NCBI GenBank assembly: GCA_900546635.1
Contig: URDS01000004.1
Span: forward strand, 69-64,068
Length of the DNA stretch: 64,000 nt
Direction: 5' to 3'
Origin: an uncultured Eubacteriales bacterium
GTDB lineage: Bacteria > Bacillota > Clostridia > Oscillospirales > CAG-272
Under the pieces are notes generated by a model that was not told the origin of the DNA, searched no databases, and saw only the letters and a list, made by a program, of their open reading frames with translations. Below, piece by piece: positions 11,696-55,314 of the stretch; the first letter of the stretch is position 1, and every line of letters starts with the position of its first letter. The position numbers and the translations under genes were made by a program.

Positions 11696-12002
11696 CATGT
11701 AATTATATAACCAAAGAAAAAATATGTTTTGCGCTACTAAAACCGCGGCTTTCCGCTTTTGCCGGGAGCGCGGCTTTGCAAAACCGGCCGGATGGTTTTT
11801 CCGCGCGGCTTTGTCCTTGTCCGCATGTATTCGCGTTTGTGCGCCCGTCTTGCACCAAAAACGCTCTTCCGCAATACAATGAAAATAGAAAAGTATCAAA
11901 GCGTGTCATAATTTACCTGCAAAAAATTTTTCCGCAATGTTTAAAATTTGCGTGATGCTGGGAAAAATAGTGATACCGAAATAATTTGCGGAGAGTGATA
12001 AA

Positions 12003-12365
12003 ATGAGTGTGCGGCGCGGAGATATTTTTTACGCCGACTTAAGCCCGGTTGTCGGGTCTGAGCAAGGCGGTTTGCGTCCTGTCCTGATTGTGCAGAACGA
12101 TGTGGGCAATAAGTACAGTCCGACGGTTATAGCCGCGGCGATCACGAGCAAAATGAGCAAAACACATTTGCCCACACATATTGACATATATGCGGACAAG
12201 GTCGGACTGCAAAAAGATTCGGTCGTCCTGCTGGAACAGATACGTACAATCGATAAACGGCGCCTGAAAGAAAAAATGGGGCACTTGGACGACGATGTAA
12301 TGAATCAGGTGAACAATGCGATCTCGATCAGCTTCGGTCTCGGCGGGGGCGGCGCAACCGGCTGA
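12003..12365 (+). CDS. mazF: MazF/EndoA (PemK-family) mRNA interferase toxin
   Basis: [43 protein letters not shown]....LPTH...[17 protein letters not shown] is nearly colinear with B. subtilis EndoA (NdoA). It adds a Gly-rich C-terminal tail. Confidence 0.92.
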
Positions 12366-12449
12366 TTTTTTGTATATGCCTGCGCTTTGAGGCGTGACGG
12401 GGCGTATATGCGCCCCATTGTCGAAGAGCCTTGACTTTTCGACGGCCTC

Positions 12450-12482
12450 GGCGGCGGATTGTATCCGCCGCTTTTCTGTTTC
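12450..12482 (+). terminator. Hairpin terminator downstream of mazF
   Basis: GCGGCGGA-TTGTA-TCCGCCGC followed by TTTTCTGTTT. Confidence 0.65.
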
Positions 12483-12710
12483 ATCGCCTTTTTGACGTGG
12501 GGGCGGCGGATGTTATTCAAAATGAATCTGTGAAAACCTCTTGCTTTTTGCTGACAGGTGCGATACAATATGTTCAGGATTTAACAAATCGGATTTGGCT
12601 TTTGTCTTGTGTCAAACGGACTTTCGCGCCGCTTTCCATATGTCCGTGTTTTATGGTCCGGCAGTTTGGAAAAACGATCAATAAAAATTTTAAAATACAG
12701 GAGAGAGACT

Positions 12711-13640
12711 ATGGCACTTGTAACCACAAAAGAGATGTTTAAAAAGGCGTACGAGGGCGGTTATGCCATCGGTGCGTTCAACATCAACAATATGGAGATT
12801 ATTCAGGCGATCACCGAGGCGGCTGAAGAACTTCGTTCTCCGGTAATTCTTCAGGTTTCGGCGGGCGCAAGAAAGTACGCCAAGCACGAGTATCTGGTGG
12901 CGCTTGCGCAGGCGGCTATCAAGGATACGGGCGTGGATCTTGCGCTGCATCTTGACCACGGCGCGGACTTTGAAATCTGCAAGGCCTGCATCGACGGCGG
13001 ATTTACGTCGGTGATGATCGACGGTTCGCATCATAGCTTTGAGGATAATGTCGCGCTGACCAAACAGGTTGTAGACTATGCGCATGCGCACGGCGTCGTC
13101 GTCGAAGGCGAACTCGGCAAACTTGCCGGTATTGAGGATGACGTGAAAGTTGCGGCGGACGACGCGATGTATACCGATCCCGGCGAGGTTGAAGAATTTG
13201 TTTCCCGCACCGGCGTAGATTCGCTCGCCATTGCTATTGGTACCAGTCACGGCGCTTATAAGTTCAAGGGCGAACCCAAACTGCGCTTTGATATTCTGGA
13301 GGATATTTCGCACCGCCTGCCCGGTTTCCCGATCGTTTTGCACGGCGCTTCGAGCGTGATTCCCGAACTGGTGGAGGAGATCAACGCATGCGGCGGCAAT
13401 CTGGACGGGGCGCGCGGCGTACCGGAGGAACTGCTGCGCCGTGCGGCTTCCATGGCCGTTTGCAAGATCAACATTGACTCGGATATCCGTCTTGCCATGA
13501 CCGCGGGTATTCGCCGTGTCATGAAAAACCAGCCTGAGGTATTTGACCCCAGAACCTATCTTACGGTCGGCCGTGACGAAGTCAGAAAGATGGTCCGGCA
13601 TAAGATTGAGACGGTACTTGGCTCCGCAAACACGCTTTAA
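12711..13640 (+). CDS. fba: Class II fructose-1,6-bisphosphate aldolase
   Basis: MALVTTKEMFKKAYEGGYAIGAFNINNME..., LHLDHG, GELG and SHGAYKF motifs. ATG 12711 follows GGAGAGAGA. Confidence 0.96.
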   Translation: MALVTTKEMFKKAYEGGYAIGAFNINNMEIIQAITEAAEELRSPVILQVSAGARKYAKHEYLVALAQAAIKDTGVDLALHLDHGADFEICKACIDGGFTSVMIDGSHHSFEDNVALTKQVVDYAHAHGVVVEGELGKLAGIEDDVKVAADDAMYTDPGEVEEFVSRTGVDSLAIAIGTSHGAYKFKGEPKLRFDILEDISHRLPGFPIVLHGASSVIPELVEEINACGGNLDGARGVPEELLRRAASMAVCKINIDSDIRLAMTAGIRRVMKNQPEVFDPRTYLTVGRDEVRKMVRHKIETVLGSANTL

Positions 13641-13661
13641 TTCTGATTTTGATTTGAAAGG

Positions 13662-13694
13662 AAAGCTGCGGCAGATTTTATTGCCGCAGCTTTT
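13662..13694 (+). terminator. Rho-independent terminator of fba
   Basis: AAAGCTGCGGCA-GATTTTAT-TGCCGCAGCTTTT. Confidence 0.85.
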
Positions 13695-13706
13695 ATACAT
13701 AGAATT

Positions 13707-14417
13707 ATGAAGTACAGTGAAAAAGTAAAAATCTACGGACAGGACGTGGATATGAACGGGATTCTGCGGCCGGCGTCTCTTTTAGCCATGCTGGAGGATG
13801 CCGGATCGCATCAAATGGCGGCTTATCCGCCCAGCAACGACGACCTTTTGAAAAGAGGCATGGTGTTTATCGCCAGCCGGATTGTCATGCAAATTTATCA
13901 AAATGTGCCGGACGGCGCGGAGGCGGAGGCGGTTACATGGGGAAGCGACGGACGCGGCGTGACGCATAACCGATGTTATCAACTGAACTGGAACGGGGAA
14001 GCGGCGGCGAAAGTGTTTTCTTCCTGGGCGCTTGTCCGCCTTGCCGACCGCAGTCTTGTGCGGTTCGGCGAGATTCAGCACGCGTTTGAGACCGAACCGC
14101 CGCTTGTGATAGATCTGCCGCTGCGCGTACGCATGCCGAGAAGCGAAGAATTTGAGCAGGTCGGAGAGCGTCCGGTCTACTTCAGCGATGCGGACGGCAA
14201 CGGACATATGAACAATACAAAATATATCTCCATGCTCTGCGATTTTGTTCCGGGGATTGAGAAGCGCGCTTTGCGCGGGATCAACATCAGCTATATGGCG
14301 GAAGCGCCGTATGGGGATGTGCTCTCTGTCTTTTGCAAAGAAGACGGCGACAGTTTTTATTTTAAGACGGTGCGCCGGGACGGAAAAGTCAACTGCGAAG
14401 CGGTTTTGTATTTTTAA
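13707..14417 (+). CDS. Acyl-ACP thioesterase family protein (double hot-dog fold)
   Basis: 236 aa. YGQDVDMNGILRPASLLAMLEDAG... and a second half ...DADGNGHMNNTKYISM are typical of FatA/B-like bacterial acyl-ACP thioesterases. Confidence 0.75.
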   Translation: MKYSEKVKIYGQDVDMNGILRPASLLAMLEDAGSHQMAAYPPSNDDLLKRGMVFIASRIVMQIYQNVPDGAEAEAVTWGSDGRGVTHNRCYQLNWNGEAAAKVFSSWALVRLADRSLVRFGEIQHAFETEPPLVIDLPLRVRMPRSEEFEQVGERPVYFSDADGNGHMNNTKYISMLCDFVPGIEKRALRGINISYMAEAPYGDVLSVFCKEDGDSFYFKTVRRDGKVNCEAVLYF

Positions 14418-14475
14418 CGGCACGGTGCGGCCGGGTTCGCGCCGACTTCCGGAAATTTTATATTCGGCGGACATT

Positions 14476-14510
14476 TGCGGCGCGTTTTGCGCCGCACGTT
14501 TGTTCTTTCT
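14476..14510 (+). terminator. Hairpin terminator after the thioesterase gene
   Basis: TGCGGCGC-GTTTT-GCGCCGCA followed by a T-rich run. Confidence 0.55.
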
Positions 14511-14677
14511 CGCAAATTGCATTTTTGCCGTCAAAAAACAGGAAAAATTCGGTTAAAAAATTCCGAAAAATTTTTGTTTTCAGAGAGGAATTTCCATGGG
14601 TGTTTCGACTAATTATAGAAAGCGTTAGAGCTTCTTCAAAAAAGTATTAACATTTCTTAAAATTTCATGAGAATATA

Positions 14678-14706
14678 TTGACGGCAAACATCGGACGTGT
14701 TATAAT
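14678..14706 (+). promoter_or_regulatory. Candidate sigma-A promoter of the 14.7-22.1 kb operon
   Basis: TTGACG-17 nt-TATAAT, about 55 nt upstream of the first permease start. Confidence 0.65.
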
Positions 14707-14760
14707 TGCTGTATTATTCAGGATAGAACAGTGACATGTGGAAAAAGGAGGAAATGCGCG

Positions 14761-15642
14761 GTGAAAAAAATCAGGCGGGATAAGCGCGAGCGTATCGAGC
14801 GCGCCAAGACCTCGCTGTTTATAGCGCCCTCTTTTATTGGCGCGGCGGTTTTCTTTATTTTGCCGTTTTTAGTGGTCGGCTATTATTCATTGATCGACAA
14901 CCCGATCAATCAGGAATTTGTAGGCATTGAAAATTATAAATACCTTTTGCAGAACAGCGCGTTTCGTTCGGCGGTGAAAAATACGGCTGTCTTTTCTGGA
15001 ATCGCAGTTCCGCTTGCGGTTGTGATTCCGCTTCTTTTTGCGGTGCTGCTGATGCGGAAAATGCCGTGCGCTTCGCTTTTTAAAACCATTTTAATCAGTC
15101 CCTTGATGGTGCCGACCGCTTCTGTTGTGCTGATCTGGGAAGTGCTTTTTCATTATGACGGCACGGTGAATCATTTCTTGTCCGCGTTCGGCATTGATCC
15201 AATCGACTTTTTTAAATCCAAATATGCCGTGGTCATTATCGTCTGCCTGTTTCTTTGGAAAAATATCGGATACAATATGATTCTGTTCATGGCGGCGCTT
15301 GCCAATATCCCGAAAGACATCACCGAAGCGTGTATGCTTGACGGCGCGGGACCGGTTCGGGTATTCTGGAAAATCAAACTGCCCTACATATCCTCAACGG
15401 TTCTGTTCGTAACGATTTTGTCTTTAATCAATTCGTTTAAAATTTTCCGTGAGGTTTACCTGATGACAGGTAATTATCCGTATAATACGCTTTACATGCT
15501 GCAGCATTTTATGAACAATACGTTTATCCAGTTGGATTATCAAAAATTGTCCGCCGCTGCGATCCTGATGTGCGCGGTGATGATTGTGCTGATCGGCGTG
15601 CTGTTCTTCATTGACAGCAAGTTTGGGAAGGATGTGGAATGA
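14761..15642 (+). CDS. Carbohydrate (CUT1-type) ABC transporter permease, MalF-like
   Basis: Six predicted hydrophobic spans and the EAA-loop motif ALANIPKDITEACMLDGAGPVRVFWKIKLP. I prefer the GTG start at 14761, 9 nt after AAGGAGG. The ORF-track start is 14731. Confidence 0.88.
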   Translation: MKKIRRDKRERIERAKTSLFIAPSFIGAAVFFILPFLVVGYYSLIDNPINQEFVGIENYKYLLQNSAFRSAVKNTAVFSGIAVPLAVVIPLLFAVLLMRKMPCASLFKTILISPLMVPTASVVLIWEVLFHYDGTVNHFLSAFGIDPIDFFKSKYAVVIIVCLFLWKNIGYNMILFMAALANIPKDITEACMLDGAGPVRVFWKIKLPYISSTVLFVTILSLINSFKIFREVYLMTGNYPYNTLYMLQHFMNNTFIQLDYQKLSAAAILMCAVMIVLIGVLFFIDSKFGKDVE

Positions 15643-16550
15643 GAGTGTCTGTACGCAAGAAGTTTCGGTCGGTGCGGCAGGGCACGGCTACCGCAATCAT
15701 CTTCCTGTTTTTCCTCGGCGTATGCATTGTATTCATTATGCCCACGCTTTTGACGTTTACCAATTCGTTGATGTCCAAAACCGAAATCGCGGCCAACTAC
15801 GGGCATGTGTTTGAAAGCGTATCCGGCGATGCCAAAACCTATGTCTCCGGCGACACCAATTTGAAGTTGATTCCGGATATGGTTGTTTTCGACCAGTATG
15901 AAAATGTACTCTTTAAAAACCCGCAGTATCTTCTGAAATTTTGGAACTCGATGATTTTGACGGTGCCTATCGTCGTGTTTCAGATTTTTGTTGCCTTACT
16001 TGCCTCATATGGCTTTGCCCGTTTTTCGGGAAAGCTCAGAAGTATCGTGTTTTTTACCTATGTGATTTTGATGCTGATGCCCTATCAGGTCACGCTGGTG
16101 CCGAATTATCTGGTTTCCGAGTGGCTCGGACTTTTGGATACGCGCCTTGCGATCATATTGCCGGGTATATTTTCACCCTTTGCGGTCTTTATACTCACCA
16201 AGTTTATGCGGCGAATCCCATATGCGATTATTGAGGCCGCAAAGCTGGACGGCGCGGGCGAAATCCAGATGTTTTTCCGCATCTGTCTGCCGATGTCCAA
16301 GGGAATTATCTATTCGGTTGCAATTTTGATTTTCATTGACTATTGGAATATGGTCGAGCAGCCGCTTGTTTTGATTAAAAACACGGATTTGCATCCGTTG
16401 TCGGTGTTCTTGTCTCAGATCAACACCGGAGATTCGGCGCTCGCTTTCGCGGTGGCCAGTATATATATGATTATTCCGATTCTCACGTTTTTGTACAGTG
16501 AGGATTATATCGTCGAGGGCGTCGCTTACGCCGGCGGCGTAAAGGGATAG
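15639..16550 (+). CDS. Carbohydrate (CUT1-type) ABC transporter permease, MalG-like
   Basis: EAA loop IPYAIIEAAKLDGAGEIQMFFRICLP. A 4-nt ATGA overlap with the upstream permease suggests translational coupling. Confidence 0.9.
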   Translation: MRVSVRKKFRSVRQGTATAIIFLFFLGVCIVFIMPTLLTFTNSLMSKTEIAANYGHVFESVSGDAKTYVSGDTNLKLIPDMVVFDQYENVLFKNPQYLLKFWNSMILTVPIVVFQIFVALLASYGFARFSGKLRSIVFFTYVILMLMPYQVTLVPNYLVSEWLGLLDTRLAIILPGIFSPFAVFILTKFMRRIPYAIIEAAKLDGAGEIQMFFRICLPMSKGIIYSVAILIFIDYWNMVEQPLVLIKNTDLHPLSVFLSQINTGDSALAFAVASIYMIIPILTFLYSEDYIVEGVAYAGGVKG

Positions 16551-16563
16551 GAGAGAGGTATTT

Positions 16564-18621
16564 ATGGAAGAGAAAAACAAACGGGGTTGGATTAAAAACG
16601 TCATCATTATTTTTCTTGTCGTTATGCTTTTGCTGACCCTATTTTCAAATACGATTATGAATCGCTCTCTGCCGGAGGTCGCGGTACAGTCCGCTGAAAG
16701 CGGTACGATTACGACGCAGGTGAAACTGAGCGGAACGGTCAGCGCCAATCAGACGCGGGAGATTTCGCTTGAAAATGCGCGCAAGGTGGATTCGGTACTT
16801 GTCCGCCGCGGAGACTATGTGGAGCGCGGCACGGTGCTTGCGACGCTGGTTGTGGGCGAGAGCAATGAGATTTTCGATGCCGAAATCGCGCTCAAACGTC
16901 TGGAAATCGAATATAAGCAGCTTTTGCTTGAAAGCGAGGACACCCTGATCGCCACGCGCTATGAATTGGAGGATAAGCAAAAGGAACTCGCGACGCTTCA
17001 GACATACATAGACGGTTACGGTGATCTTGAAACGGTCAAAAACAATTATCAGGCGCAGATTGATTTGATTCAGTTGGCGATTAAAGATTTGGATGAAAAG
17101 ATCGAATCGCTTGACAAGCAGCTGAGCAAGCTGACCGATTCGGGCTATACCGATATGAGTAAACTCAATCAGGCCATCGAAGAGGCGAAAGACGCGGTCA
17201 GCGATGCGGAATCCGCCTATAATTCGGCCAAGCGTGCCGCGCAGAAAGCGCAGACGGTTTACAACAATTCAAGCACGGTATATGGGGCGGCGGAACAGGA
17301 TTATGACGATGCGGTCGATGCGCGCAAAGACATAGAATCCAGTATCGAAACGCTGGGAACGCAGCTTGACAAGCTGAAAGAAGATCTTGCGACGATTCAG
17401 GAGCAGATTGACGCGCTGGTACCTCCCGGTCCGGATGCGACGGAGGAAGAGATCGCGGAATACAATCGGAAAAAGGCTGAACTGACCGATAAAAAAAGTG
17501 AGAAGAATGCGCAGATTCGCGATAAAAATGAGGAGATTACAAACAAAAAATCCGAGTTGAAGGACGCGAAAACGGCGGAATCCGATGCGCTTGAAAGCTT
17601 TAATTCTGCGGGTACCGCCATGAACACGGCGCATGCCAATTATACCAGCGCAAAGAGCGCAAAAGACAGCGCGGAGTCCTCGTATAAAGCGGCAAAGAAA
17701 CAGCTTGAAGATTTAAACGAGGGTTGGGAGTATGCGCTTTTGTCTTCCCGCAAGGAAGAAATCGAGGCGGAAAAGAAAGAAAAAGGCGAGCAGGTAGAGG
17801 AGCTTCAAAAGCAGTTGGATACGGTGATTGAAAAAATGCCGAAAACGCTGGAGGAGGCCGAAAATGAAAAGGTACAGCTGACGCGCAGCATCGAAAGTCT
17901 GGAATCTACCATTCGCCGGACCGAAGCAAACGAAGAGATCAACGGTCAGACCGAAGCGCTGGATATGGAAATCAAGCGTTCGGAAATTGACCGCAAAAAA
18001 GCAGAGATTGCCAAGTTAAAGGAGAAAGTGACTTCCACGGAAATCAAAGCGACGGTCAGCGGCACGATAAACAGTGTCAATATCGCTGCGGGCGATGAAG
18101 TGGAGGCAGGGCAGACTGTATTTGAAATTATTATGACCGATCAGGGTTATACGATGGAATGCAGCGTGACCAACGCGCAGGCGTCGAGACTCAGTGTAGG
18201 TCAGGAGGCCGAGGTTCAATATTATTATTGGGGTACAAAGCCGTCCGTCCGCATTTCCGCGATTAAGAATGATCCGAACAATTCGGGCAAGGGCAAATTG
18301 GTCACGTTCACCGTGGAGGGCGACATCAGCGACGGAACCAATTTGACCATTACGGTCGGAAGCCGCGGTTCCAGCTATGATACCATCGTGCCCAACAGCG
18401 CCATCCGTGAGGATTCCGAGGGCAAATTTGTATTGCTGGTTGTTTCAAAGCCGTCTCCGCTCGGAAACCGCTTCTTTGCGGAACGCAAAAATGTAGAGGT
18501 TCTGGCTTCGGATGCAACCAAGAGCGCGATTGACGCTACGCTGTCGTGGGGTGATTACATCATTACCAATTCTTCTGTGCCGATTTCGGACGGTATGCAG
18601 ATTCGGATGAGCGAAAAATAA
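16564..18621 (+). CDS. HlyD/MacA/YknX-type membrane-fusion (periplasmic adaptor) protein with a very long coiled-coil insert
   Basis: N-terminal TM (IIIFLVVMLLLTLF). Lipoyl half 1 is GTVSAN..VLVRRGDYVERGTVLATL. About 390 aa follow that are heptad-like and rich in E/K/A/L/Q. Lipoyl half 2 is IKATVSGTINSVNIAAGDEVEAGQTVFEI. A beta-barrel and membrane-proximal domains complete the protein. Confidence 0.8.
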   Translation: MEEKNKRGWIKNVIIIFLVVMLLLTLFSNTIMNRSLPEVAVQSAESGTITTQVKLSGTVSANQTREISLENARKVDSVLVRRGDYVERGTVLATLVVGESNEIFDAEIALKRLEIEYKQLLLESEDTLIATRYELEDKQKELATLQTYIDGYGDLETVKNNYQAQIDLIQLAIKDLDEKIESLDKQLSKLTDSGYTDMSKLNQAIEEAKDAVSDAESAYNSAKRAAQKAQTVYNNSSTVYGAAEQDYDDAVDARKDIESSIETLGTQLDKLKEDLATIQEQIDALVPPGPDATEEEIAEYNRKKAELTDKKSEKNAQIRDKNEEITNKKSELKDAKTAESDALESFNSAGTAMNTAHANYTSAKSAKDSAESSYKAAKKQLEDLNEGWEYALLSSRKEEIEAEKKEKGEQVEELQKQLDTVIEKMPKTLEEAENEKVQLTRSIESLESTIRRTEANEEINGQTEALDMEIKRSEIDRKKAEIAKLKEKVTSTEIKATVSGTINSVNIAAGDEVEAGQTVFEIIMTDQGYTMECSVTNAQASRLSVGQEAEVQYYYWGTKPSVRISAIKNDPNNSGKGKLVTFTVEGDISDGTNLTITVGSRGSSYDTIVPNSAIREDSEGKFVLLVVSKPSPLGNRFFAERKNVEVLASDATKSAIDATLSWGDYIITNSSVPISDGMQIRMSEK

Positions 18622-18632
18622 GGAGGTCGGCT

Positions 18633-19625
18633 GTGAAGAAACGGGTACTGGTTTTTGGCGTCCTTATGGCGGTGTTTCTTGCGCTCGCGTTTTCGCTCGG
18701 CGCCGCTCGGCGTTCTGTGACGGCGGGGTATGACCGTGACTTTGCGGCGGACCGTTTTCGGGGGACGAATACAAATAAGTATACGCAGCTTTCTCTCTAT
18801 TGTACCGAGCAGGATTATCTGACGCCCGACGGCATGATGGCGATTAAAAATTCGATTGAATCCGGACTTACGGCCGAAAGTCTGCCGACCGCGGGAAATT
18901 ATCTGCTTTGCGCGTCGGTTGAAAAAGATGTGACCATTGCGCGGGATCAGAATACAGTTAATGCGATTGCGACGGTTTATTTCGGGGATTATTTCGGTCT
19001 GCATCCTGAGATCCCGCAGACCGGCGGCTATCTTGATGAGTCGGACGCAACCACCGAGTTCTGCGCGATTGATGATTTTGCGGCGTGGCGGCTGTTCGGC
19101 TCGGTCGATGTATGCGGGATGGATTTGGAGATCAACGGAAAATTTTACACAATTTCCGCGGTGTTGACTGCCGATCGAAGCACGTATTCTGAATATTACG
19201 GCATCACGCCCAGGGTTTATATTTTATATAATTCTGCGGCAATGCGAAATCAAAATTTGACTTTTACATCGCTTGAGGCTGTTTTGCCGGATCCGATTAC
19301 GGATTTCGGCCGGGATTTATTTGCTTCCGCAACTTCCGCTTACGGCGAGGAGGTCGTCGTCAATCATGAACGGTTTACGCCGCTCCGCCTGTGGGAAAAG
19401 ATCAAGGGAATGACGGCGCTCGGTGTCATGACCGGGGCGTCGTATCCATATTATGAAAACGTGTCGCGCATTATGGAAACCAAATGCGCCATGCTGCTGA
19501 CCTTTGAAGCGGTATCGTGGATATTGACTGCGGCGATGTTGATTTGTCTTGCCGTATCTGTTTTTCGTCCGCTTCTCAGACGGTATCATGAAAAACGAAG
19601 AGCGCGTAAAATACACGCATTTTAA
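18633..19625 (+). CDS. Two-TM membrane protein with a MacB-periplasmic-core-like domain and no FtsX domain
   Basis: GTG start 7 nt after AAGGAGG. TM1 is VLVFGVLMAVFLALAF. The extracytoplasmic segment VYFGDYFGL....IDDFAAWRLFGSVDVCGMDLEINGKFYTISAVL...RVYILYNSA resembles MacB_PCD. There is a single C-terminal TM and then a basic tail. Confidence 0.6.
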   Translation: MKKRVLVFGVLMAVFLALAFSLGAARRSVTAGYDRDFAADRFRGTNTNKYTQLSLYCTEQDYLTPDGMMAIKNSIESGLTAESLPTAGNYLLCASVEKDVTIARDQNTVNAIATVYFGDYFGLHPEIPQTGGYLDESDATTEFCAIDDFAAWRLFGSVDVCGMDLEINGKFYTISAVLTADRSTYSEYYGITPRVYILYNSAAMRNQNLTFTSLEAVLPDPITDFGRDLFASATSAYGEEVVVNHERFTPLRLWEKIKGMTALGVMTGASYPYYENVSRIMETKCAMLLTFEAVSWILTAAMLICLAVSVFRPLLRRYHEKRRARKIHAF

Positions 19626-19636
19626 GGAGGAACAGA

Positions 19637-22072
19637 ATGAAGAAAATTGTCAGGATTATCAGCTTTGTATTGGCCGCGCTGTTGGCGCTTTCGGTTTTGG
19701 CTGCTTGCGGCGGCGGGAAGAAAATGCCCGAAAAGCAGGTGGTTGACCATGTGTATAAGTACAACCAGACAAAGCTTGTGACCGTGGAAGAGCCGGATTG
19801 GTCGAATGAGGAAGAGTTCAACGGGTATACATATTTGTCTAATAACTCTATCGGAGAGAGCGGTTTTTGCTATGTGCTGCAAAGCGTGGATAAGGATCAC
19901 AAAACCACATCCACGGTTGCCTATATCGGAACCTATGACGGTACGGAGGTCACGGAAATTCCGATAGACTTGGCGAATGATGAAAACAACAGCGCCTACA
20001 TGAATAACATTTTGGTGTTGGATAACGGTCTTGCTGTTTTTATCAATGAAAGTAAACAGGTGGGTGATCCGGAAACCCCTTTCTGGGAGCAGTATTATTA
20101 TCTGTATTTTTATGATTTTGACGGGAAGCTCACCGGTACGGTAGATTTGAAAAAAGCTTTCGATGTCAGCGGCGAAAATTCTTATTTCTATGTGAATACG
20201 ACGCTGACCGACGGCACGGATCTGTATTTAACCTGCAATACGGATAAGGCTGAATATAACAATAAATTGGTACGCCTCGGCATGGACGGCACGGTTAAAA
20301 ATGCGTATGCGCTGCTGCCGGAGGGGACCGACGGGTATATCAACAGCATTTATTTTATCGGTGATTCTGAGATCTGCTATACGTATGAGAGCTACGGTTC
20401 GGATACGTATACGACGGTCTGCAAGCGCTATAATTTTGAAACCGGCGCACAGTCGGAGGTGAATACCGGGGATCTCGGACGTCAGTTCTCCTATAGTTCA
20501 TTCGGCGGCAACGGCGGTGCATATTATTCCGACAATTCCGGTATTTATAAAGTGGATCTCGATACCGGCGCGAAGACCGAACTGATGAACTACATCAATT
20601 CCGATTATATTTATAATTACGGTAATTTCTGCGCGCTGGGCGACGATCGGTTTGCGTCCCTGACACGCGAGTACAAGGATAACAAGACCACGCTGTATGT
20701 GAATACTTTTGAAAAAGTACCGGAAAGCGAGCTTACGCCGAAATATTTGATTACGGTTGCGTCGGCGGGTTATGCATACGATTTTCAGGAGCAGATCGTA
20801 AAGTTTAACCTTGCCAGTGAAGAATATCGCATTCAATATGTCGATTATTCTCAGTACAATACCGATGAGGATTATACTGCGGGCAAGACAAAGCTGAACA
20901 ATGATATTCTGGCCGGCAATGTCCCGGATGTACTCATTTCCGATTCGGAATTTTCGGTATCCAAATACGTCAATAAAGGACTGTTTAAGGATCTCTATAC
21001 CTATTTGGACAATGATCCCGAACTTTCCAGAGATGACTTTTTAGGGAATATCCTTGAGGCTTGTGAAATCGGCGGAAAATTGTATGAGATTCCGACCAGC
21101 TTCGTTGTGATGGGACTTATGGGCGGCAAGGAGAAAATCGGCGAGTTTGCAAATTTGACGATGCCTGAGTTTGCCGCAAAGGTGGCTGCATTGCCGGAGG
21201 AAGTGTCCTTCTTCCGCGCGGGCGAAGTTTCAAGAGCCAATATGCTGCAGATGCTTGTGTATCTGGGCTATACGAATTTTATCGATACGGCGACCGGAAA
21301 GTGCAACTTCAACAACGATGATTTTAAAGCAATCCTGGAATATGTAAATACACTGCCCGAAAAGTCTCGGTGGGAAGATGAAAATTATAATCCCGATGAT
21401 TTTGACTGGGACGCTTATAACAATGCGTTTAAAGAGGGCAAAGCGATAGCGGAAATGACTACGCTTGATTCTTTCTATGCTTTCGAGAATCAGTCTTACA
21501 ATTTCGGCAGTATGGAATTGGATTTCATCGGCATGCCTTCGCCTGACCGCGACGGTTATGTCTTTACCAATGCCAATCTGAAATTCCTTGTCAGTGCGAA
21601 GAGTCCGCTGGCGGATGAGGCTTGGAATTTTGTCAAGCTGTTCTTTGAGGATTCGTATCAGACAGAGAGTTCTTGGGCGTTTTCGGTAACAAAGGACGGA
21701 TTTGAACAGCAGAAACAGAAGGCTTTGGATGAAATTAAACGGCGCGAGGAAGAAAAGAAAGAGCAGGAAGATTCCGATATCGAAATTTCACCTCGCACCA
21801 AAGAAGTTGCCGTTACCGACGCTGTAATCGGCGGCGGTGGAATTGCGATTGAACCCGGTTGGGGAAATGATCGCAGAGAGATGACCGCAGAGGATGTGGA
21901 GCGCATTGCGGAGATCGCAACCGGTGTACGTAAACAGCTCGTTTATGATGAAAATGTATACAATATCATCAGCGAGGAAGCATCGGCTTATTTTGCGGGG
22001 AAAAAGAGCTTGGCCGAGGTTGCGTCTTTGATTGAAAATCGCGTACAAACCGTAATCAGCGAATCCAGATAA
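19637..22072 (+). CDS. 811-aa lipoprotein: beta-rich N-terminal domain fused to a family-1-like extracellular solute-binding domain
   Basis: Signal peptide plus lipobox LSVLAAC-GGG. Residues ~25-360 are Y/T/G/D-rich beta-type repeats. Residues ~370-811 resemble sugar SBPs (YLITVASAGYAYDF...DILAGNVPDVLIS...). RBS is AAGGAGG. Confidence 0.75.
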   Translation: MKKIVRIISFVLAALLALSVLAACGGGKKMPEKQVVDHVYKYNQTKLVTVEEPDWSNEEEFNGYTYLSNNSIGESGFCYVLQSVDKDHKTTSTVAYIGTYDGTEVTEIPIDLANDENNSAYMNNILVLDNGLAVFINESKQVGDPETPFWEQYYYLYFYDFDGKLTGTVDLKKAFDVSGENSYFYVNTTLTDGTDLYLTCNTDKAEYNNKLVRLGMDGTVKNAYALLPEGTDGYINSIYFIGDSEICYTYESYGSDTYTTVCKRYNFETGAQSEVNTGDLGRQFSYSSFGGNGGAYYSDNSGIYKVDLDTGAKTELMNYINSDYIYNYGNFCALGDDRFASLTREYKDNKTTLYVNTFEKVPESELTPKYLITVASAGYAYDFQEQIVKFNLASEEYRIQYVDYSQYNTDEDYTAGKTKLNNDILAGNVPDVLISDSEFSVSKYVNKGLFKDLYTYLDNDPELSRDDFLGNILEACEIGGKLYEIPTSFVVMGLMGGKEKIGEFANLTMPEFAAKVAALPEEVSFFRAGEVSRANMLQMLVYLGYTNFIDTATGKCNFNNDDFKAILEYVNTLPEKSRWEDENYNPDDFDWDAYNNAFKEGKAIAEMTTLDSFYAFENQSYNFGSMELDFIGMPSPDRDGYVFTNANLKFLVSAKSPLADEAWNFVKLFFEDSYQTESSWAFSVTKDGFEQQKQKALDEIKRREEEKKEQEDSDIEISPRTKEVAVTDAVIGGGGIAIEPGWGNDRREMTAEDVERIAEIATGVRKQLVYDENVYNIISEEASAYFAGKKSLAEVASLIENRVQTVISESR

Positions 22073-22115
22073 ATCCCGGCAAAAAACTGAAAAAGCATTG
22101 TATTTTTGACACAAC

Positions 22116-22150
22116 AGACAGCCGCCGAAATTCGGCGGCTGTCTCGGCTT
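22116..22150 (+). terminator. Rho-independent terminator of the 14.7-22.1 kb operon
   Basis: AGACAGCCGCCGAA-A-TTCGGCGGCTGTCT followed by CGGCTTTT. Confidence 0.8.
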
Positions 22151-22259
22151 TTGCCGTGATTTTCCGTCGCGGCTTCGCTTAGCACAATGTTGCAGATGTT
22201 ATACGGATATGGTAGAATATGGTGTAAACAAACAATTTGCAAAATGGGGGCAAAAAATT

Positions 22260-23141
22260 ATGAACAGGTTCAAGATCGCTCTGCTGCAAACAGCGCCGTG
22301 CGGTACGGTAAATGAAAATTTAAAAAAAGGCGTCGCCATCTGTAAAGACGCGAGAAAAATGGGCGCCGACCTTGCACTTTTCCCCGAAATGTGGAGCAAC
22401 GGATACAATATATACAATCGGCCTATTGAGGAATGGAAAGCCGAAGCGATTCCCGCCGACGGTGATTTTATAAACACGTTTGCCCGTCTTGCAAAAGAAC
22501 TGAATATGGCAATCGGCATTACCTTATTGGAACAATACGGAGCGCATTTGCGAAATACAATGGTTCTATTTGATCGGTTCGGAGAACGCAAACTGACCTA
22601 TGCTAAGGTACACACCTGCGATTTTGACGTGGAACGGAATCTCACGCCGGGCGAAGATTTTTATGTCACTGCCCTGAATACAGCCTGCGGGGAAGTAAAG
22701 GTCGGCGCCATGATTTGTTATGACCGGGAATTTCCGGAAAGCGCCAGAATTTTGATGTTGAAAGGCGCGGAGCTTATTCTGGTTCCGAATGCTTGCCCTA
22801 TGGAAATAAACCGCCTTTCACAGCTTCGCGGCAGAGCATATGAAAATATGTTGGCCATCGCTACCTGCAACTATCCTGAAACCGTTCCCGATTGTAACGG
22901 CGGTTCAAGTGTGTTTGACGGCGCGGTCTATCTGCCCGGTGCGGACGGTTCGCGGGATACCTGTATTTTGCAGGCGGACGGAAAAGAGGGAATTTATATT
23001 GCCGAACTTGATTTGGAACAACTTCGCTGTTATCGTGAAAACGAAGTACACGGCAATGCGTATCGGCACCCGAAAAAATACAGACTTTTAATCGATACCA
23101 AAATCGAAAGTCCGTTTGTCAGAGACGATTATCGGGAGTAA
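22260..23141 (+). CDS. Carbon-nitrogen hydrolase (nitrilase superfamily) protein
   Basis: E-K-C triad context: LALFPEMW (Glu), YAKVH (Lys), GAMICYDREFPE (Cys). The start MNRFKIALLQ follows GGGGG. Confidence 0.85.
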   Translation: MNRFKIALLQTAPCGTVNENLKKGVAICKDARKMGADLALFPEMWSNGYNIYNRPIEEWKAEAIPADGDFINTFARLAKELNMAIGITLLEQYGAHLRNTMVLFDRFGERKLTYAKVHTCDFDVERNLTPGEDFYVTALNTACGEVKVGAMICYDREFPESARILMLKGAELILVPNACPMEINRLSQLRGRAYENMLAIATCNYPETVPDCNGGSSVFDGAVYLPGADGSRDTCILQADGKEGIYIAELDLEQLRCYRENEVHGNAYRHPKKYRLLIDTKIESPFVRDDYRE

Positions 23142-23183
23142 AAGACGGGTTTGCTCCGCTTTTTCCGTTCTTTATAAAAAATC

Positions 23184-23226
23184 AAAAAGCATCGCAGCCG
23201 AACATAGATCGGCTGCGATGCTTTTT
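23184..23226. terminator. Bidirectional hairpin terminator between convergent genes
   Basis: An 18-bp stem AAAAAGCATCGCAGCCGA / TCGGCTGCGATGCTTTTT with A- and T-runs on both sides. Confidence 0.85.
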
Positions 23227-23296
23227 CAGCTTTATAAATTTCAGTCGAATTTCGCTTGCTTCAGACTTCGGTTGCTTTTTTAGGCAGGGGAATCCC

Positions 23297-24898
23297 TTAG
23301 GATAATACCATTGCGGCGGGGAGAAAATTTTTGCCCTTCTTTGTGAAGACCAGCAGAATTGTGTTTTCCTGCTCGCTTGTACCGACAAAATTTTTCAGCG
23401 TTGCGGTGTAGGATACCTCGCAGGTAAACGTATTGTCGTCGTAGGAGGTGAAATTGGTCGCTTCGATTTTATCCAGCGTCATCGTTTGCGGCGCAATGTA
23501 CATATATCCGATATAGGAGCGCTTCAGATTTGTATAGAGGGGGCTTGGGTAGCGGGTCAGCGCCAGCACAGCGTCCAGATTTGCCTGCGTGTTGCGGTAT
23601 CCCTGCGTGGTATAGTGCAGGTAAGCCTTTACATAGTCAACGGCTTGAGTTTCATAGGTTTGACGCAGATCTTCGCTTTCCGGGAAAACGCAGGCAAAGC
23701 GTCCGGTCTCGCCGTCCGAAACGACGCGGAGCGAAATACCGTTTATTTGCGCCGTGAATACGGGCGGCACATACAGATCGCAAAGGGTATATTCGTTTGC
23801 AGTCGGCGGCGCGCTCAACTCGGCAAATTCGGATTTCCACAGGGCGTCGAAAGCGGTAATTTTATCGTCTGAAAGCGCCATGCCGTCTGCATACACGGCG
23901 GCGCCTGCGGGTGCAAGCAGTGTATAATCGGCGGTGGGCGGCGCGAAGCGCAAGTTTTCCGCACCCTGCTCGGCAGAGAGCGGTGTTTCTCCGAGTACGG
24001 CTGTGATTTCTGCGTCTCCGTATACCGTGTTGACTGTATACGTGCACATGGCGACGGTATTTCCAAGCGCGTCCGGCGACGTTTGGCCGGTCTCACTTTG
24101 GAATACATCGGTGACGCGCACGCCGCCGATACGAACGACCGCTTCGCTCGGCGCCGTGATGGAGACGGTATGCAGTTTCGCCACCGGATAATCGTACAGC
24201 CGATCCCAATTTCCGCTGCCGGTCAGTACGGTTCCGTCTAATGTGACTTCAATGTCGGGCTCCAAAATGAAGTCCTCTATCCGATAGCTGCAAAACAGGT
24301 CGGCGGCGCCGAACGCGGTAAACGCGCTGTGCGTTTCTAAATAGGCGTCGTCCACCTCTTGTTCGCCGATGCGGATTTTCGCTCCGGCGGGGACAATCAG
24401 ACATAACGGGCGCTTAGTCAAAAGCTCCGGCGCGACGAGTTCCGCTTTTTGAACCAAATAAGGGCGGAAGCCGAACAGGCCGCTTTTTTCACCGAGTTCC
24501 AAGGTGATCCGCAGAAGTTTTTCATCGCCGCTGCTGATGAGATAAACCGGGTTTTCGTACGTGTATTCCCGAATCAGTTTGGAATAGGTCAGATTTTCCG
24601 AAGAAAAATCTGCGGCCAGCCGTTTTGCCGCTTCATCGGCGGGTTCAAATAGATTCTGCCGATCGGGATGCGCTTCAAGCAGAAGCCGGTGAAATTCGGT
24701 TTCGCCGAGCGAATCGATATAGCGTTCAATGGTGTAAAAAGGCTGCGACGCCTCAAACTGCGCCATAACGCACCACATAACGGCGCAGCAGATCAAAATC
24801 AAACCAAGCCAAATCAGGGCGTAAATACATAGCTTTCGTGCAAATGATGAAAGCCGTTTCGTTTTTTGAGTGGATTGTTCGGACATATGCATTCTCAC
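23297..24898 (-). CDS. Membrane-anchored hypothetical protein (single N-terminal TM, large extracytoplasmic region)
   Basis: 533-aa ORF with TM LCIYALIWLGLILICCAVMWCVM. I recognise no family motifs. Its start region (GTG 24898, ATG 24892 or ATG 24886) overlaps the stop of the upstream gene. Confidence 0.6.
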   Translation of the reverse strand: MRMHMSEQSTQKTKRLSSFARKLCIYALIWLGLILICCAVMWCVMAQFEASQPFYTIERYIDSLGETEFHRLLLEAHPDRQNLFEPADEAAKRLAADFSSENLTYSKLIREYTYENPVYLISSGDEKLLRITLELGEKSGLFGFRPYLVQKAELVAPELLTKRPLCLIVPAGAKIRIGEQEVDDAYLETHSAFTAFGAADLFCSYRIEDFILEPDIEVTLDGTVLTGSGNWDRLYDYPVAKLHTVSITAPSEAVVRIGGVRVTDVFQSETGQTSPDALGNTVAMCTYTVNTVYGDAEITAVLGETPLSAEQGAENLRFAPPTADYTLLAPAGAAVYADGMALSDDKITAFDALWKSEFAELSAPPTANEYTLCDLYVPPVFTAQINGISLRVVSDGETGRFACVFPESEDLRQTYETQAVDYVKAYLHYTTQGYRNTQANLDAVLALTRYPSPLYTNLKRSYIGYMYIAPQTMTLDKIEATNFTSYDDNTFTCEVSYTATLKNFVGTSEQENTILLVFTKKGKNFLPAAMVLS

Positions 24899-25905
24899 TT
24901 TACCAGAATCGCGGTGGCGACGACACGCTCACCGTAAACGTATGCGCTGTTTGTGACATTTTCTCCCTCGTAGATCATCAGCGAGGAGGAACCGCCGTCA
25001 AGATTTGTCGCGTTGACGGCGCCAAATTCCAGAAAAATCTCTACCAGGTCATCCAGCGTCGCGCCCAGTGAATCGACGCTGCGTCCGTTGACAACCAAAA
25101 GCAGAATTGCGCCGTCCTCGCGCTGGCCGATCGCCGTTCGGGGATTTAAGCCGCCGCCGAGCGCGGAGCGCTCGTTTTGCGGCGTGCCGTTGATAATCAG
25201 CGCGGGGCCGTAGGAAGCGGCATATTGTACGCCGCGGTCGAGCGCGCTTTGCGCGGTCATACGGCCGACGTGCAAAAGACCGTCCGCGTCGATACCGGCC
25301 AGCGAATAATAGGACCCCGGATTGCCCCAGAGAAGTTCTCCCTCATAGATTACGATCCCGTCCGGGATGCCGCCTGTGCCGGAGCCATTCGGATCGTAAA
25401 ATCCGCCGGCGTTGGTTCCGGCGACGGCGCCGTATTCTTCGATCATTTTATGTACGGTAAGTCCGCGTTTGCCCTCGCCGAAGCCGTTTGGCGGAATGCC
25501 GACAAAGACACGGGTCGGATCTTCAATCACCATCATTTTTCCGTAATAGGTGCCGCCCCGCACGTCATGAATTTCGATTCCGCTTTGCGTTTTTTCGGTA
25601 TTGCCGCCGATTGGAAGATCGTCGGTGTAGTCCTCGCGGGACGGAAGCTGAATCATGGAGGCGACGATCTCGACATCGGTTGCTTCTTCTGTGCGTGAAA
25701 TCATATCCTCGATTTTGTCATTGCTCATGTACAGCCGGGGGATGAACTTTGCGGCGCTTGTTTCCATTAAGGAGGTCACAAGCAGTTTCCCTGCATAAGA
25801 GGAGGGACCGTAGATCATCACCCCGATTACGCTGTAAAGGAGCAGAAACAGAAAAAAGAGCGTGCACAGCACGACAGTCGTAATTTTTAAAAGGCGCTGC
25901 TTCAT
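24895..25905 (-). CDS. Phosphodiester glycosidase family protein (NAGPA-like, DUF2233)
   Basis: N-terminal TM. Motifs AVAGTNAGGFYDPNGSG..PDGIVIYEGELLWG, RTAIGQREDGAILLLVVNGR and ATNLDGGSSSLMIYEGE. The start is set at MKQRLL, 8 nt after GGAG. Confidence 0.75.
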   Translation of the reverse strand: MKQRLLKITTVVLCTLFFLFLLLYSVIGVMIYGPSSYAGKLLVTSLMETSAAKFIPRLYMSNDKIEDMISRTEEATDVEIVASMIQLPSREDYTDDLPIGGNTEKTQSGIEIHDVRGGTYYGKMMVIEDPTRVFVGIPPNGFGEGKRGLTVHKMIEEYGAVAGTNAGGFYDPNGSGTGGIPDGIVIYEGELLWGNPGSYYSLAGIDADGLLHVGRMTAQSALDRGVQYAASYGPALIINGTPQNERSALGGGLNPRTAIGQREDGAILLLVVNGRSVDSLGATLDDLVEIFLEFGAVNATNLDGGSSSLMIYEGENVTNSAYVYGERVVATAILVK

Positions 25906-26269
25906 TTCAAACTCCTGCATAAACCGGCTCACCCTGTCGCGGCGGTGCAATGGGACTTAAAGGGTACGGAAAAAGGGCAAATCCATGCTTCCGACGGCAG
26001 AGATCGCTGTATTTCATCCATTATACCATTTTTTATAAGCGGTTGACAATAAAATCCGACAGAATTTTTTACAATATTTATTGTGTGCGGATTTCAAGAC
26101 GGATGTGTGACAGAAACTTGTGGCAATTGTGAAAAAACGACATAAACGCTTTGGGATTTTCGTTGAATTTGTTCATTGCGAAACCGCCCTTGAATTGGTA
26201 AAATAGATTGTAAACCATTTTGGGGAAATTTCCCGAAAAATTAAAAATGGGTCAATCGGAGGAAAACAA

Positions 26270-27520: not shown

Positions 27521-27630
27521 TTTTTGAGTTTGAATACGCAAAGGGAAGCTTATTTACGGCTTCCCTTTGTGAGTTTTCAGTATTTCCCTGGTAAAATCAG
27601 GTAAGAAGATGAAAGGGGCAGTTCGCCGAT

Positions 27631-37731: not shown

Positions 37732-37950
37732 TTTGGGTTCCCCCGCTTTCATGGTTGGATTTCAAGATTCAAAAAACGCAATCCACGTTTGGTTTCGGTA
37801 ACAGGATTCTGTTTTTATTATACGGTTCGGTCGTATTTTCCACAAGATGAAAAAAGAAGAATTTTTTCATCCGATTTTACCTGTTTGAACATAAAAAATC
37901 CGATATGCTCGAAAAGAGACATATCGGATTTTAAAATTCAGTATCGTTGC

Positions 37951-54921: not shown

Positions 54922-55314
54922 GTGAGCTTAATTTATGTAGATCTTCGCAGCCGTACGCCGATTTTTGAGCAGATCATCGAATGTGTGCGTGATCTTGTCA
55001 TTCGCGGTATTTTGCAGCCGGATGAGCATTTGCCCTCTGTCCGCGTTTTAGCGGCTGAGCTTGCAATCAATCCGAATACGATTCAGAAGGCATATGGTGA
55101 ACTGGAGCGGCAGGGCGTCATTTATTCTTTGGCAGGCCGCGGGAATTTTGTTGCCTCGGATATTTCCGCGCTGACGGGAAGCCATCATGAAAAGCTGCTG
55201 CTGAATATTCAGGACAGCATCAAGGCGGCCGGAGATTACGGAGTCGAACGCTCAAGGGTTGAGCAAACGGTTGCGAAGGCGCTTGCGGCCTTTGGAGGAG
55301 GGAACAGAACATGA
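54922..55314 (+). CDS. GntR-family transcriptional regulator, YtrA subfamily (short C-terminal domain)
   Basis: LPSVRVLAAELAINPNTIQKAYGELERQGVIYSLAGRGNFV winged HTH. 130 aa. A GTG start lies 7 nt after AAGGAGG. Confidence 0.88.
   Translation: MSLIYVDLRSRTPIFEQIIECVRDLVIRGILQPDEHLPSVRVLAAELAINPNTIQKAYGELERQGVIYSLAGRGNFVASDISALTGSHHEKLLLNIQDSIKAAGDYGVERSRVEQTVAKALAAFGGGNRT

Follow-up and report, generated by a model that had tools for sequence, protein, structure and literature searches.

One question raised by the locus described here is what the parts of an export pump are doing in the operon of a sugar importer. The locus lies in a window of 64,000 nucleotides (contig URDS01000004.1 of assembly GCA_900546635.1, positions 69 to 64,068 of the forward strand) from an uncultured Eubacteriales bacterium, and consists of five closely packed open reading frames (ORFs) on the + strand, with a coding span of 14761-22072 as read from the ORF list and translations. 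ORF1 and ORF2 encode permeases of a CUT1-type ATP-binding cassette (ABC) importer, ORF3 a membrane-fusion protein (MFP), ORF4 a protein that carries only the periplasmic core domain (PCD) of MacB and its flanking transmembrane (TM) helices, and ORF5 a large lipoprotein of the solute-binding protein (SBP) type. A first-pass annotation of the window had proposed an importer-type translocon genetically coupled to exporter-type accessory parts, and both the domain identities and the conservation of the gene order agree with this. All the evidence presented is computational, and from it cooperation of all five proteins around an engine of the importer type is considered likely.

Domain composition of the five proteins

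ORF1 (14761..15642, +; the mechanical ORF call begins at 14731) is a MalF/UgpA-like CUT1 permease and ORF2 (15639..16550, +) is a MalG/UgpE-like one, as the first-pass annotation had read them. Both matched the BPD_transp_1 family significantly, ORF1 with an expectation (E) value of 8e-12 and 45.7 bits and ORF2 with 2e-10 and 41.3 bits (cut-off 26.4). The best NCBIfam models for the pair were UgpA/UgpE, GlcT/GlcU and MalF/MalG, all of them under their equivalog cut-offs; the score of ORF1 against the UgpA model was 119 bits, and ORF2 was recognised by the GlcU, UgpE and MalG models. About six TM segments were indicated by hydropathy in each protein. The cytoplasmic EAA coupling loop, read in the translations, was intact in ORF1 (...DITEACMLDGAG...) and in ORF2 (...AIIEAAKLDGAG...), and corresponded to the loops quoted in that annotation. 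The two BPD_transp_1 subunits with an EAA loop that characterise a CUT1 importer are, then, both encoded.

The dedicated sugar-class SBP of such an importer is provided by ORF5 (19637..22072, +), a lipoprotein of 811 amino acids (aa) with 360 extra aa at its N-terminus. Its signal peptide and LAAC lipobox (hydropathy and lipobox pattern) are encoded at 19637-19708, and the lipobox cysteine, C24, is invariant among relatives. The C-terminal oligosaccharide-type solute-binding domain (aa ~369-811; 20741..22069, +) matched SBP_bac_1 over residues 412-675 only, with 44.4 bits against a cut-off of 26, and resembled CbpC (7x0o) by sequence with an E value of 1e-6. In a Foldseek search with the full AlphaFold model (predicted local distance difference test, pLDDT, 85.3), which was dominated by the SBP half, CbpC ranked first (2e-15) and was followed by cycloalternan, maltose/trehalose, chitin oligosaccharide and xylo-oligosaccharide binders. 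The sugar-binding C-terminal half that had been suspected from the translation is therefore borne out by family match and fold. In the same model the N-terminal domain (aa ~40-360; 19754..20716, +) is all-beta, with ~23 strands whose secondary-structure pattern, ~six groups of ~four strands, indicates that it is probably a beta-propeller. This domain belongs to no Pfam family, relatives of ORF5 gave only weak matches to propeller families (Mala_s_1-like, Reg_prop, DUF5122), and the N-terminal half is poorly conserved beyond close relatives.

ORF3 (16564..18621, +) is a MacA-like MFP of 685 aa. One TM anchor was found by hydropathy at its N-terminus (aa 13-31; 16600..16656, +), an alpha-helical hairpin is inserted between the lipoyl halves (aa ~101-485; 16864..18018, +), and the C-terminal lipoyl half, the beta-barrel and the membrane-proximal part follow (aa 486-685; 18019..18618, +). 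Matches above the Pfam cut-offs were obtained for HlyD_3 (494-588) and Biotin_lipoyl_2 (two matched stretches, the best at 74-95); the second lipoyl half was marked by Biotin_lipoyl at 491-522, and RND_mfp covered aa 417-682 with 92.6 bits, just under its cut-off of 94.9. A family profile built from 20 members had E. coli MacA as its best match (E 2e-10), followed by LipC, HlyD, EmrA and AcrA, and ORF3 also matched Spr0693. These matches reproduce the HlyD/MacA/YknX adaptor order that had been read from the letters. Two weaker similarities were recorded, a stretch of ORF3 that is M23-like or lipoyl-like (E 0.018, under the cut-off) and a match of the family profile to the EnvC-like metallopeptidase chain 8i6o_E (E 0.0016). 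ORF3 thus has the anchor, the hairpin-split lipoyl domain, the beta-barrel and the membrane-proximal domain of an MFP; the exporter partner usual for this class is missing, and the partners kept across loci are MalFG-type permeases and SBPs (a single locus, L079, has a MacB-type partner).

The hairpin insert of ORF3 was delimited by composition and coiled-coil family matches. It comprises ~380 aa and is enriched in E, A, K and L, and its sole prolines are 287, 288 and 290, in the middle of the insert, plus 426; from these positions the motif VPPGPD (aa 286-291; 17419-17436, +) is the likely hairpin tip. Folded as a two-helix hairpin with ~180-residue arms, the insert would reach ~27 nm, if the helices are straight and fully extended with 1.5 Å per residue. 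In this family the insert considerably exceeds that of MacA or Spr0693 in length; among 74 relatives it varies from 135 to 511 aa (median ~310). Conservation is distributed very unevenly along the protein. The TM helix and the juxtamembrane residues (aa 11-40; 16594-16683; ...FSNTIMNRSLPEV) showed 73% identity across 19 mostly distant relatives and are the most conserved part of ORF3, well above any soluble domain, with 52% for the membrane-proximal C-terminus (aa 601-685) and 13-14% for the hairpin. A value of 73% is unusual for a mere membrane anchor. The anchor equals the permeases in conservation, and this speaks for a specific contact inside the membrane. In the family alignment no conserved motif was found at the hairpin tip and indels were frequent in the hairpin; a distal hairpin that evolves freely and varies in length speaks against attachment to a conserved partner further out, and fits a spacer or a tube tuned to each envelope.

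ORF4 (18633..19625, +) is a truncated MacB-type subunit, made up of TM1 (aa 5-23), an ectodomain with the MacB PCD fold (aa ~30-272; 18720..19448, +) and a stalk/TM2 helix (aa 273-329). No Pfam match was obtained with ORF4 alone, MacB_PCD remaining below the reporting threshold; its homologues carry MacB_PCD (PF12704), and the ORF4 family profile, compared with the PDB, gave significant matches (E <= 0.01) to MacB PCDs only, the best at 7e-5 (YknZ was weak, E 0.66). In the AlphaFold model (pLDDT 84.6), TM1 is followed by an ectodomain of mixed alpha/beta structure and then by a stalk/TM2 helix of 57 residues. Foldseek placed MacB (5gko and 5nik_J), Spr0695 (5xu1) and the YknZ ectodomain (5f9q) first, with E values of 1e-9 to 1e-7, and YbbP, LolC/LolE and HrtB at lower ranks. 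Homologues, profile and model all point to a MacB PCD in the segment between two TM helices for which the first-pass annotation had suggested this fold.

The ORF4 chain stops 17 residues past TM2 and has two TM segments in all; hence it lacks TM3/TM4 (the FtsX domain), the coupling helix and a nucleotide-binding domain (NBD). A Pfam scan detected no FtsX domain in ORF4 nor in five longer relatives, and the longer PCD proteins of Lachnospiraceae, considered as full MacB permeases, were rejected as such, having MacB_PCD and no FtsX. Compared with a MacB/FtsX-type (type VII) transporter, ORF4 has the PCD between TM1 and TM2, and is without the FtsX domain, the four TM segments and the coupling helix, as well as an adjacent or fused NBD of the MacB/LolD type. 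The most conserved motif of the family, YPYYEN, stands immediately ahead of the stalk/TM2 helix, and within it PY.EN is invariant. The PCD-only family is large: 615 clusters at 50% identity were collected with E <= 1e-30 from 1.84 billion representatives, the proteins being typically 330-400 aa long. A search seeded with a Roseburia PCD returned 1313 clusters at 90% identity, the names of which all derive from metagenome-assembled genomes (MAGs). In the databases, ORF4-like proteins are labelled 'ABC transporter permease' or 'hypothetical protein'.

Two members of this family have additional domains. P0284 (L086:1506-4766), whose gene lies behind an MFP-sized one on a metagenome contig of 4.8 kb, is a PCD-SBP fusion of 1086 aa with MacB_PCD at 11-211 and SBP_bac_1 at 711-970; this single case may be a real fusion or the product of a lost stop codon or frameshift, and is too weak to lean on. 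In P0253 a HAD-hydrolase domain, presumably cytoplasmic, is appended at the C-terminus (residues 361-540).

Conservation of the module

The ORF4 profile was scanned against one genome per GTDB species. Relatives of ORF4 were present in at least 544 species-representative genomes, and 80 loci were retrieved; 80 loci were inspected per scan, mostly from MAGs, and their genes were taken as stop-to-stop ORFs and scored with the five window proteins. The hosts of these loci are Oscillospiraceae, Lachnospiraceae, Christensenellales, Ruminococcus, Roseburia, Acetatifactor, Pseudobutyrivibrio, Peptococcaceae and Maledivibacter halophilus, with M. halophilus M1 and a Pseudobutyrivibrio isolate as cultured carriers. 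The genes for permease, permease, MFP and PCD were adjacent and co-oriented in every long-enough locus of the 80 bar one (L079). SBP genes adjoin most of the modules with enough flanking sequence; there are 1-3 per module, encoding 770-900 aa, and they lie upstream, downstream or on both sides. Where the ORF4 homologue is 52% identical, the gene order is the same and the SBP gene is duplicated; in a Ruminococcus flavefaciens MAG (26% identity) the same five genes stand in the same order in another context; and in an Oscillospiraceae MAG (30% identity) the same genes occur with the SBP gene first. Tandem or flanking SBP duplicates were seen at L001:11074-16155, in L008, L021, L022 and L029, and in many of L087-L166, and one metagenome contig holds two complete modules in tandem.

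The reverse test started from the permease. A search of a separate metagenome collection with ORF2 gave 562 relatives, from which 80 loci (59-82% identity) were kept. MFP and PCD genes lay directly downstream of the permease gene in 55 of the 56 loci that had at least 3.3 kb of downstream sequence. The remaining locus (L101) was rejected as a real exception and is an artefact of N bases, which were dropped by the ORF filter; its SBP gene lies at the expected distance.

In distant loci the whole-protein identity to the window was 59-62% for the permeases (medians of 59% for ORF1 and 62% for ORF2), 33% for the MFP, 28% for the PCD protein and 28% for the SBP. Judged from these sequences, the permeases form a tight dedicated clade that is almost never found without MFP-PCD. 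The genes around the module are not conserved: when ~900 flanking ORFs were clustered, no family occurred in more than 6 of ~76 loci, and no conserved glycoside hydrolase or regulator was found beside the module among these clustered flanks. In the window and in one Roseburia locus the neighbours are housekeeping genes (fructose-bisphosphate (FBP) aldolase, serine hydroxymethyltransferase, HflX). The adjacency seen in both directions, together with the non-conserved flanks, indicates a module that, on comparative grounds, is self-contained and strongly selected as a unit. The conservation of gene order across Clostridia, which had been named as a check on the first-pass proposal, was thus found by searching both ways.

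L079 (2048-8178; a Lachnospiraceae MAG) is the sole locus in which the pair of MFP and PCD-only proteins does not stand behind MalFG-type permeases. Upstream of the pair are a MacB-type permease (MacB_PCD and FtsX, 350 aa), a 446-aa protein without a Pfam match and a 220-aa NBD, and a DDE transposase is encoded further upstream, at 266-1726. This arrangement could reflect the ancestry of the MFP/PCD pair or a rearrangement.

The missing ATPase

As noted in the first-pass annotation, there is no ABC ATPase gene in the five-gene unit; moreover, no MalK-type ATPase was found anywhere in the 64-kb window, whose NBDs are short or duplicated and of non-MalK type. In ~17 of the 80 retrieved loci an NBD gene lies immediately 3' of the PCD gene. 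Four such NBDs were sampled, and all four consisted of ABC_tran, OB_MalK and TOBE_2, which is the architecture of MalK/MsmX. The ATPases encoded in cis in relatives are thus of the MalK type, which indicates that the engine of the module is importer-type, and their presence in some relatives supports the earlier assumption of an unlinked MsmK/MsmX-type ATPase. Unlinked MsmK ATPases shared by CUT1 systems are documented in Clostridia-class bacteria (PMC12838199). For the module of the window, a MalK/MsmX-type ATPase would have to be encoded elsewhere in the genome.

Two other ABC loci of the window were noted. A few kb downstream of the module, at 26270-31278, there is a complete Bmp/PnrA-type ABC importer with a Bmp lipoprotein, a double-NBD ATPase and a BPD_transp_2 permease, beside which a further, presumed permease ORF downstream occupies 30286-31278; it is unlikely that its ATPase, being non-MalK, serves the module. 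At 55311-58353 an ABC ATPase gene (299 aa) overlaps the start of the gene for a 729-aa protein without a Pfam match, which may be an unclassified ABC permease.

Organisation of the transcription unit

The five genes overlap or nearly touch, as the first-pass annotation had stated: the stop of ORF1 and the start of ORF2 share 4 nt (ATGA), and the gaps between ORF2 and ORF3, ORF3 and ORF4, and ORF4 and ORF5 are 13, 11 and 11 nt. Two candidate start codons were found for ORF1, the GTG at 14731 of the mechanical ORF call and a GTG at 14761. The latter is the likelier start, because AAAGGAGGAA precedes it by 8 nt and the GTG at 14731 lacks a ribosome-binding site (RBS). AAGGAGG stands before both ORF4 and ORF5, and GGAGAGAGG before ORF3. 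The earlier statement that every ORF has a GGAGG-type RBS was slightly overstated; it holds, as a GGAG-type site, for ORF3, ORF4 and ORF5, whereas ORF2 has the weaker GGAAGGA only. Translation of ORF2 is probably coupled to that of ORF1.

A sigma-70/sigma-A-type promoter with an extended -10 TG (TTGACG-17-TATAAT; 14678..14706, +) is predicted upstream of ORF1; it agrees with the consensus at 11 of 12 positions and was the top-scoring promoter-like site in a consensus scan of the 11 kb between 13000 and 24000, in keeping with the near-consensus promoter proposed there before. After ORF5 there is a probable intrinsic terminator (22116..22156, +), with a perfect 13-bp GC-rich stem at 22116-22144 followed by UCGGCUUUUGCC. 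The 71-nt fold had a minimum free energy of -33.1 kcal/mol (z = -5.7), and all 200 shuffled sequences folded less well; the terminator is absent from the list of the consensus scan because its T tract is interrupted. It is the lone strong terminator, again as first noted: terminator-like matches inside the unit were weak and at chance level (20 against 14.2 +/- 4.0 in shuffles), and the scan of 13000-24000 revealed no convincing promoter or terminator inside the five-gene unit. An Rfam search of 12000-24000 yielded no riboswitch, leader RNA or other family at E <= 0.1. The GC content is 47.6% in the module and 48.9% in the rest of the window. The natural reading of this layout is a single transcription unit of five genes, and the check for internal promoters and terminators, by which the first-pass annotation could have been contradicted, leaves that prediction standing.

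Comparison with known systems

The closest relatives of the engine are the CUT1 (MalFGK2-MalE-type) importers of Firmicutes that work with MsmX/MsmK. Like the module, they have two EAA-loop BPD_transp_1 permeases and a lipoprotein SBP of the sugar fold, and their ATPase is often unlinked; the relatives of the module with an ATPase in cis have the ABC_tran, OB_MalK and TOBE_2 arrangement. Unlike the module, no described CUT1 system has an MFP or a MacB-PCD subunit. The module differs further in its SBP, about twice the usual size through the N-terminal all-beta domain, and in its position outside glycan-utilisation loci and without a regulator.

The accessory pair resembles MacAB-TolC, Spr0693-0694-0695 of S. 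pneumoniae and YknWXYZ of Bacillus, in that ORF3 is closest to MacA and the ORF4 ectodomain with its flanking helices matches MacB, Spr0695 and YknZ. Unlike these pumps, the module has no FtsX domain (TM2-TM4), coupling helix or MacB-type NBD, and its engine is importer-type with SBPs. The TolC-like factor and diderm envelope of a tripartite pump are also lacking, there being no such gene in the module or conserved beside it, and the hosts are Clostridia. A SipL/SPOCS-domain protein, a marker of spore-coat morphogenesis, is encoded at 42965-44512 of the window and indicates a spore-forming monoderm host. Rings of Gram-positive MFPs do function without an outer membrane (PMC5768738, PMC8277102), and in a 2021 review of tripartite pumps Gram-positive MFPs appear only with MacB-type ABC transporters, YknWXYZ and Spr0693-0695 (PMC8277102; PMC5768738).

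FtsEX with EnvC, PcsB or CwlO is comparable in that an ectodomain of the MacB/FtsX family works with a long extracellular coiled-coil protein. It differs from the module, in which ORF3 has every part of an MFP and carries no hydrolase or LytM domain, and ORF4 has neither the FtsX TM domain nor an FtsE-type ATPase.

Two further systems offer a functional analogy. In Mce and MlaE/YrbE-type systems an ABC importer is permanently joined to a multimeric, largely helical tunnel, through which substrate crosses the envelope and reaches the permease; these belong to unrelated protein families (MCE domains and MlaE-fold permeases), transport lipids and occur in mycobacteria and diderms, and no homology to the module is claimed. 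The alginate 'superchannel' of Sphingomonas sp. A1 (AlgM1M2SS-AlgQ1/Q2) is a CUT1-type, SBP-dependent polymer importer with extra envelope structures; it is Gram-negative, has no MFP or PCD, and its accessory parts are unrelated.

No description of an importer equipped with an MFP or PCD was found in the searchable open-access literature, an absence that is not proof. One paper retrieved in this search, PMC12838199, was rejected as a description of the module, having been matched by the strain names 'MACB1018' only. The first-pass annotation had not recognised a described system here, and likewise no characterised homologous locus was met with in that literature. On this comparison we class the module as an ABC importer that depends on an SBP and bears an accessory pair without precedent.

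Proposed mechanism and alternative explanations

In the proposed mechanism, ORF1-ORF5 would constitute one machine, a MalFGK2-type (CUT1, type I), binding-protein-dependent ABC importer for an oligosaccharide-like substrate, to which two extracytoplasmic subunits of MacAB-type pump origin would be permanently attached. ORF4 would lie in the membrane beside the permeases as a docking base for the MFP, a platform that a MalFG-type transporter lacks. ORF3, anchored by its highly conserved TM helix, may form a ring oligomer by analogy with MacA, YknX and Spr0693, and its ~180-residue helical arms would build a tube or scaffold of ~27 nm, enough to cross a Gram-positive wall. By this superstructure, glycan chains would be guided, or held, on their way from the exterior of the wall to its inner zone, and ORF5, with its putative propeller and its SBP domain, would capture the glycan near the membrane and pass it to ORF1/ORF2 for ATP-driven uptake. 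The complete chain, an oligosaccharide importer with a wall-spanning superstructure derived from MacA and MacB, is the best supported of the readings considered, and is offered as plausible, somewhat short of probable. That it represents the first MFP-dependent importer, in which a wall-spanning MacA-like tube on a PCD platform feeds long glycans to a MalFGK-type importer, is possible, if less likely than not.

Several points weigh against this importer reading. We infer the physical complex and its stoichiometry, the direction of transport, the class of substrate and the role as conduit or scaffold, and the status of the complex counts against the proposal. ORF4 lacks both a coupling helix and contact with an NBD, and offers no evident route by which ATP hydrolysis could drive it. 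Ordinary oligosaccharides can diffuse through peptidoglycan, and it is not evident why they should require a conduit. The ATPase of the module itself was not found within the 64-kb window. Finally, housekeeping surroundings with no conserved glycoside hydrolase or regulator are atypical of glycan-utilisation loci and give no clue to the substrate.

The last of these points, a context devoid of catabolic genes, speaks for an exporter or extractor. Here MFP-PCD would be the working end, as in MacAB. A molecule that is toxic or destined for the wall or surface (a glycolipid, a polysaccharide or a peptide) would be picked up at the outer leaflet or in the inner wall zone and expelled or handed outward through the MFP tube; the MalFGK-type engine would supply the conformational cycle by way of TM contacts, and the large SBPs would be donors or acceptors of substrate instead of import receptors. 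Two more observations count at once for this explanation and against import: all characterised MFPs and MacB-type PCDs act in export or extraction (review PMC8277102), and L079 pairs the same MFP and PCD-only proteins with a MacB-type permease and short NBD. In addition, ORF4 keeps precisely the TM1-stalk-PCD-stalk-TM2 elements; in MacB these serve mechanotransmission. However, we know of no exporting ABC system of type I, that is, one with BPD_transp_1 permeases and EAA loops that depends on an SBP and is energised by MalK. SBPs accompany most modules and are duplicated as importer receptors are, the cis ATPases have regulatory domains of the MalK kind, as is typical for sugar importers, and the lack of any NBD-coupling element in ORF4 is as much a difficulty for an exporter. 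Export or extraction is therefore considered unlikely, while still deserving attention.

The importer and the MFP/PCD pair may also be two independent systems in one operon, with ORF1, ORF2 and ORF5 as a CUT1 importer and ORF3 and ORF4 as a separate wall-spanning structure, which would act alone (as a passive channel, a spacer or a sensor) or be served by an unlinked MacB-type ABC transporter; the shared transcript would then mean no more than co-regulation. Contact between the two sets of proteins is something we infer, the gene order leaves both pairs as separable blocks, and L079 is an instance of the MFP and PCD-only pair without MalFG-type permeases. Against such independence, the two-way adjacency persists where PCD identity has fallen to 23-32% and the flanks differ, and permeases of the 59-62% clade almost never occur without MFP-PCD. 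The TM helix of the MFP, conserved like the permeases, suggests a specific intramembrane contact, and the cis MalK gene follows the PCD gene and not the permease genes. With these observations a merely shared operon becomes quite unlikely.

An accessory for wall remodelling or signalling in the manner of FtsEX appears improbable. In this case the PCD-like ectodomain would relay the state of the transporter to the long coiled-coil protein, and thereby open the wall locally, or control an unlinked hydrolase or kinase, during substrate transport. FtsX-type ectodomains bind the long coiled-coil partners EnvC, PcsB and CwlO, and the EnvC-like match of the ORF3 family profile and the sub-cut-off M23-like or lipoyl-like stretch of ORF3 point in the same direction. 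Yet ORF3 has the full MFP domain set and no hydrolase domain, the flank clustering over ~76 loci showed no conserved hydrolase or kinase gene near the module, and the weak coiled-coil matches are compositional.

The idea that ORF4 is a decaying MacB remnant and the arrangement an accident of genome or assembly, suggested by an ORF4 that falls below Pfam thresholds and is without half of a MacB permease, is effectively refuted by the large PCD-only family of its own (615 clusters of 330-400-aa proteins), by the invariant PY.EN before TM2 and the confident ORF4 model, and by the recovery of the same contig at 99% identity in an independent MAG (L006, 'uncultured Eubacteriales bacterium').

Other genes in the window

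Upstream of the module, a PemK/MazF-type toxin gene (12003-12365) and the genes for a class II FBP aldolase and an acyl-ACP thioesterase occupy 12003-14417; L001 and L002, in which ORF4 is 52% identical, have these three genes ahead of the module as well. On the - strand, the gene for an NAGPA-type phosphodiester glycosidase (24895-25950) has a 4-nt overlap with that of a 533-aa protein (23297-24898) without a Pfam match, after which a terminator with an 18-bp stem was found at 23226-23184 (-). A 918-aa protein with two Cu_amine_oxidN1 domains is encoded at 34996-37752 (-).

Significance

By textbook standards, an MFP or a MacB-type periplasmic domain marks an export system, and a conserved family in which they are wired to an SBP-dependent, MalK-energised importer would alter the rules by which ABC systems are annotated and classified. 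The module also constitutes a natural experiment on whether a different ABC fold can drive, or merely hold, a MacB-type ectodomain, and gives a concrete route to the study of MFP roles in monoderms, which have no outer membrane. Should the conduit function prove real, the module would represent a kind of uptake machine in a category of its own, the monoderm equivalent of the 'selfish' SusCD/TonB route or of the Mce tunnels, widespread in gut and rumen Oscillospiraceae and Lachnospiraceae, and Gram-positive MFPs would gain a function unrelated to efflux. The carriers are abundant and mostly uncultured Clostridia of the gut and rumen, and a wall-spanning uptake device would affect their competition for glycans.

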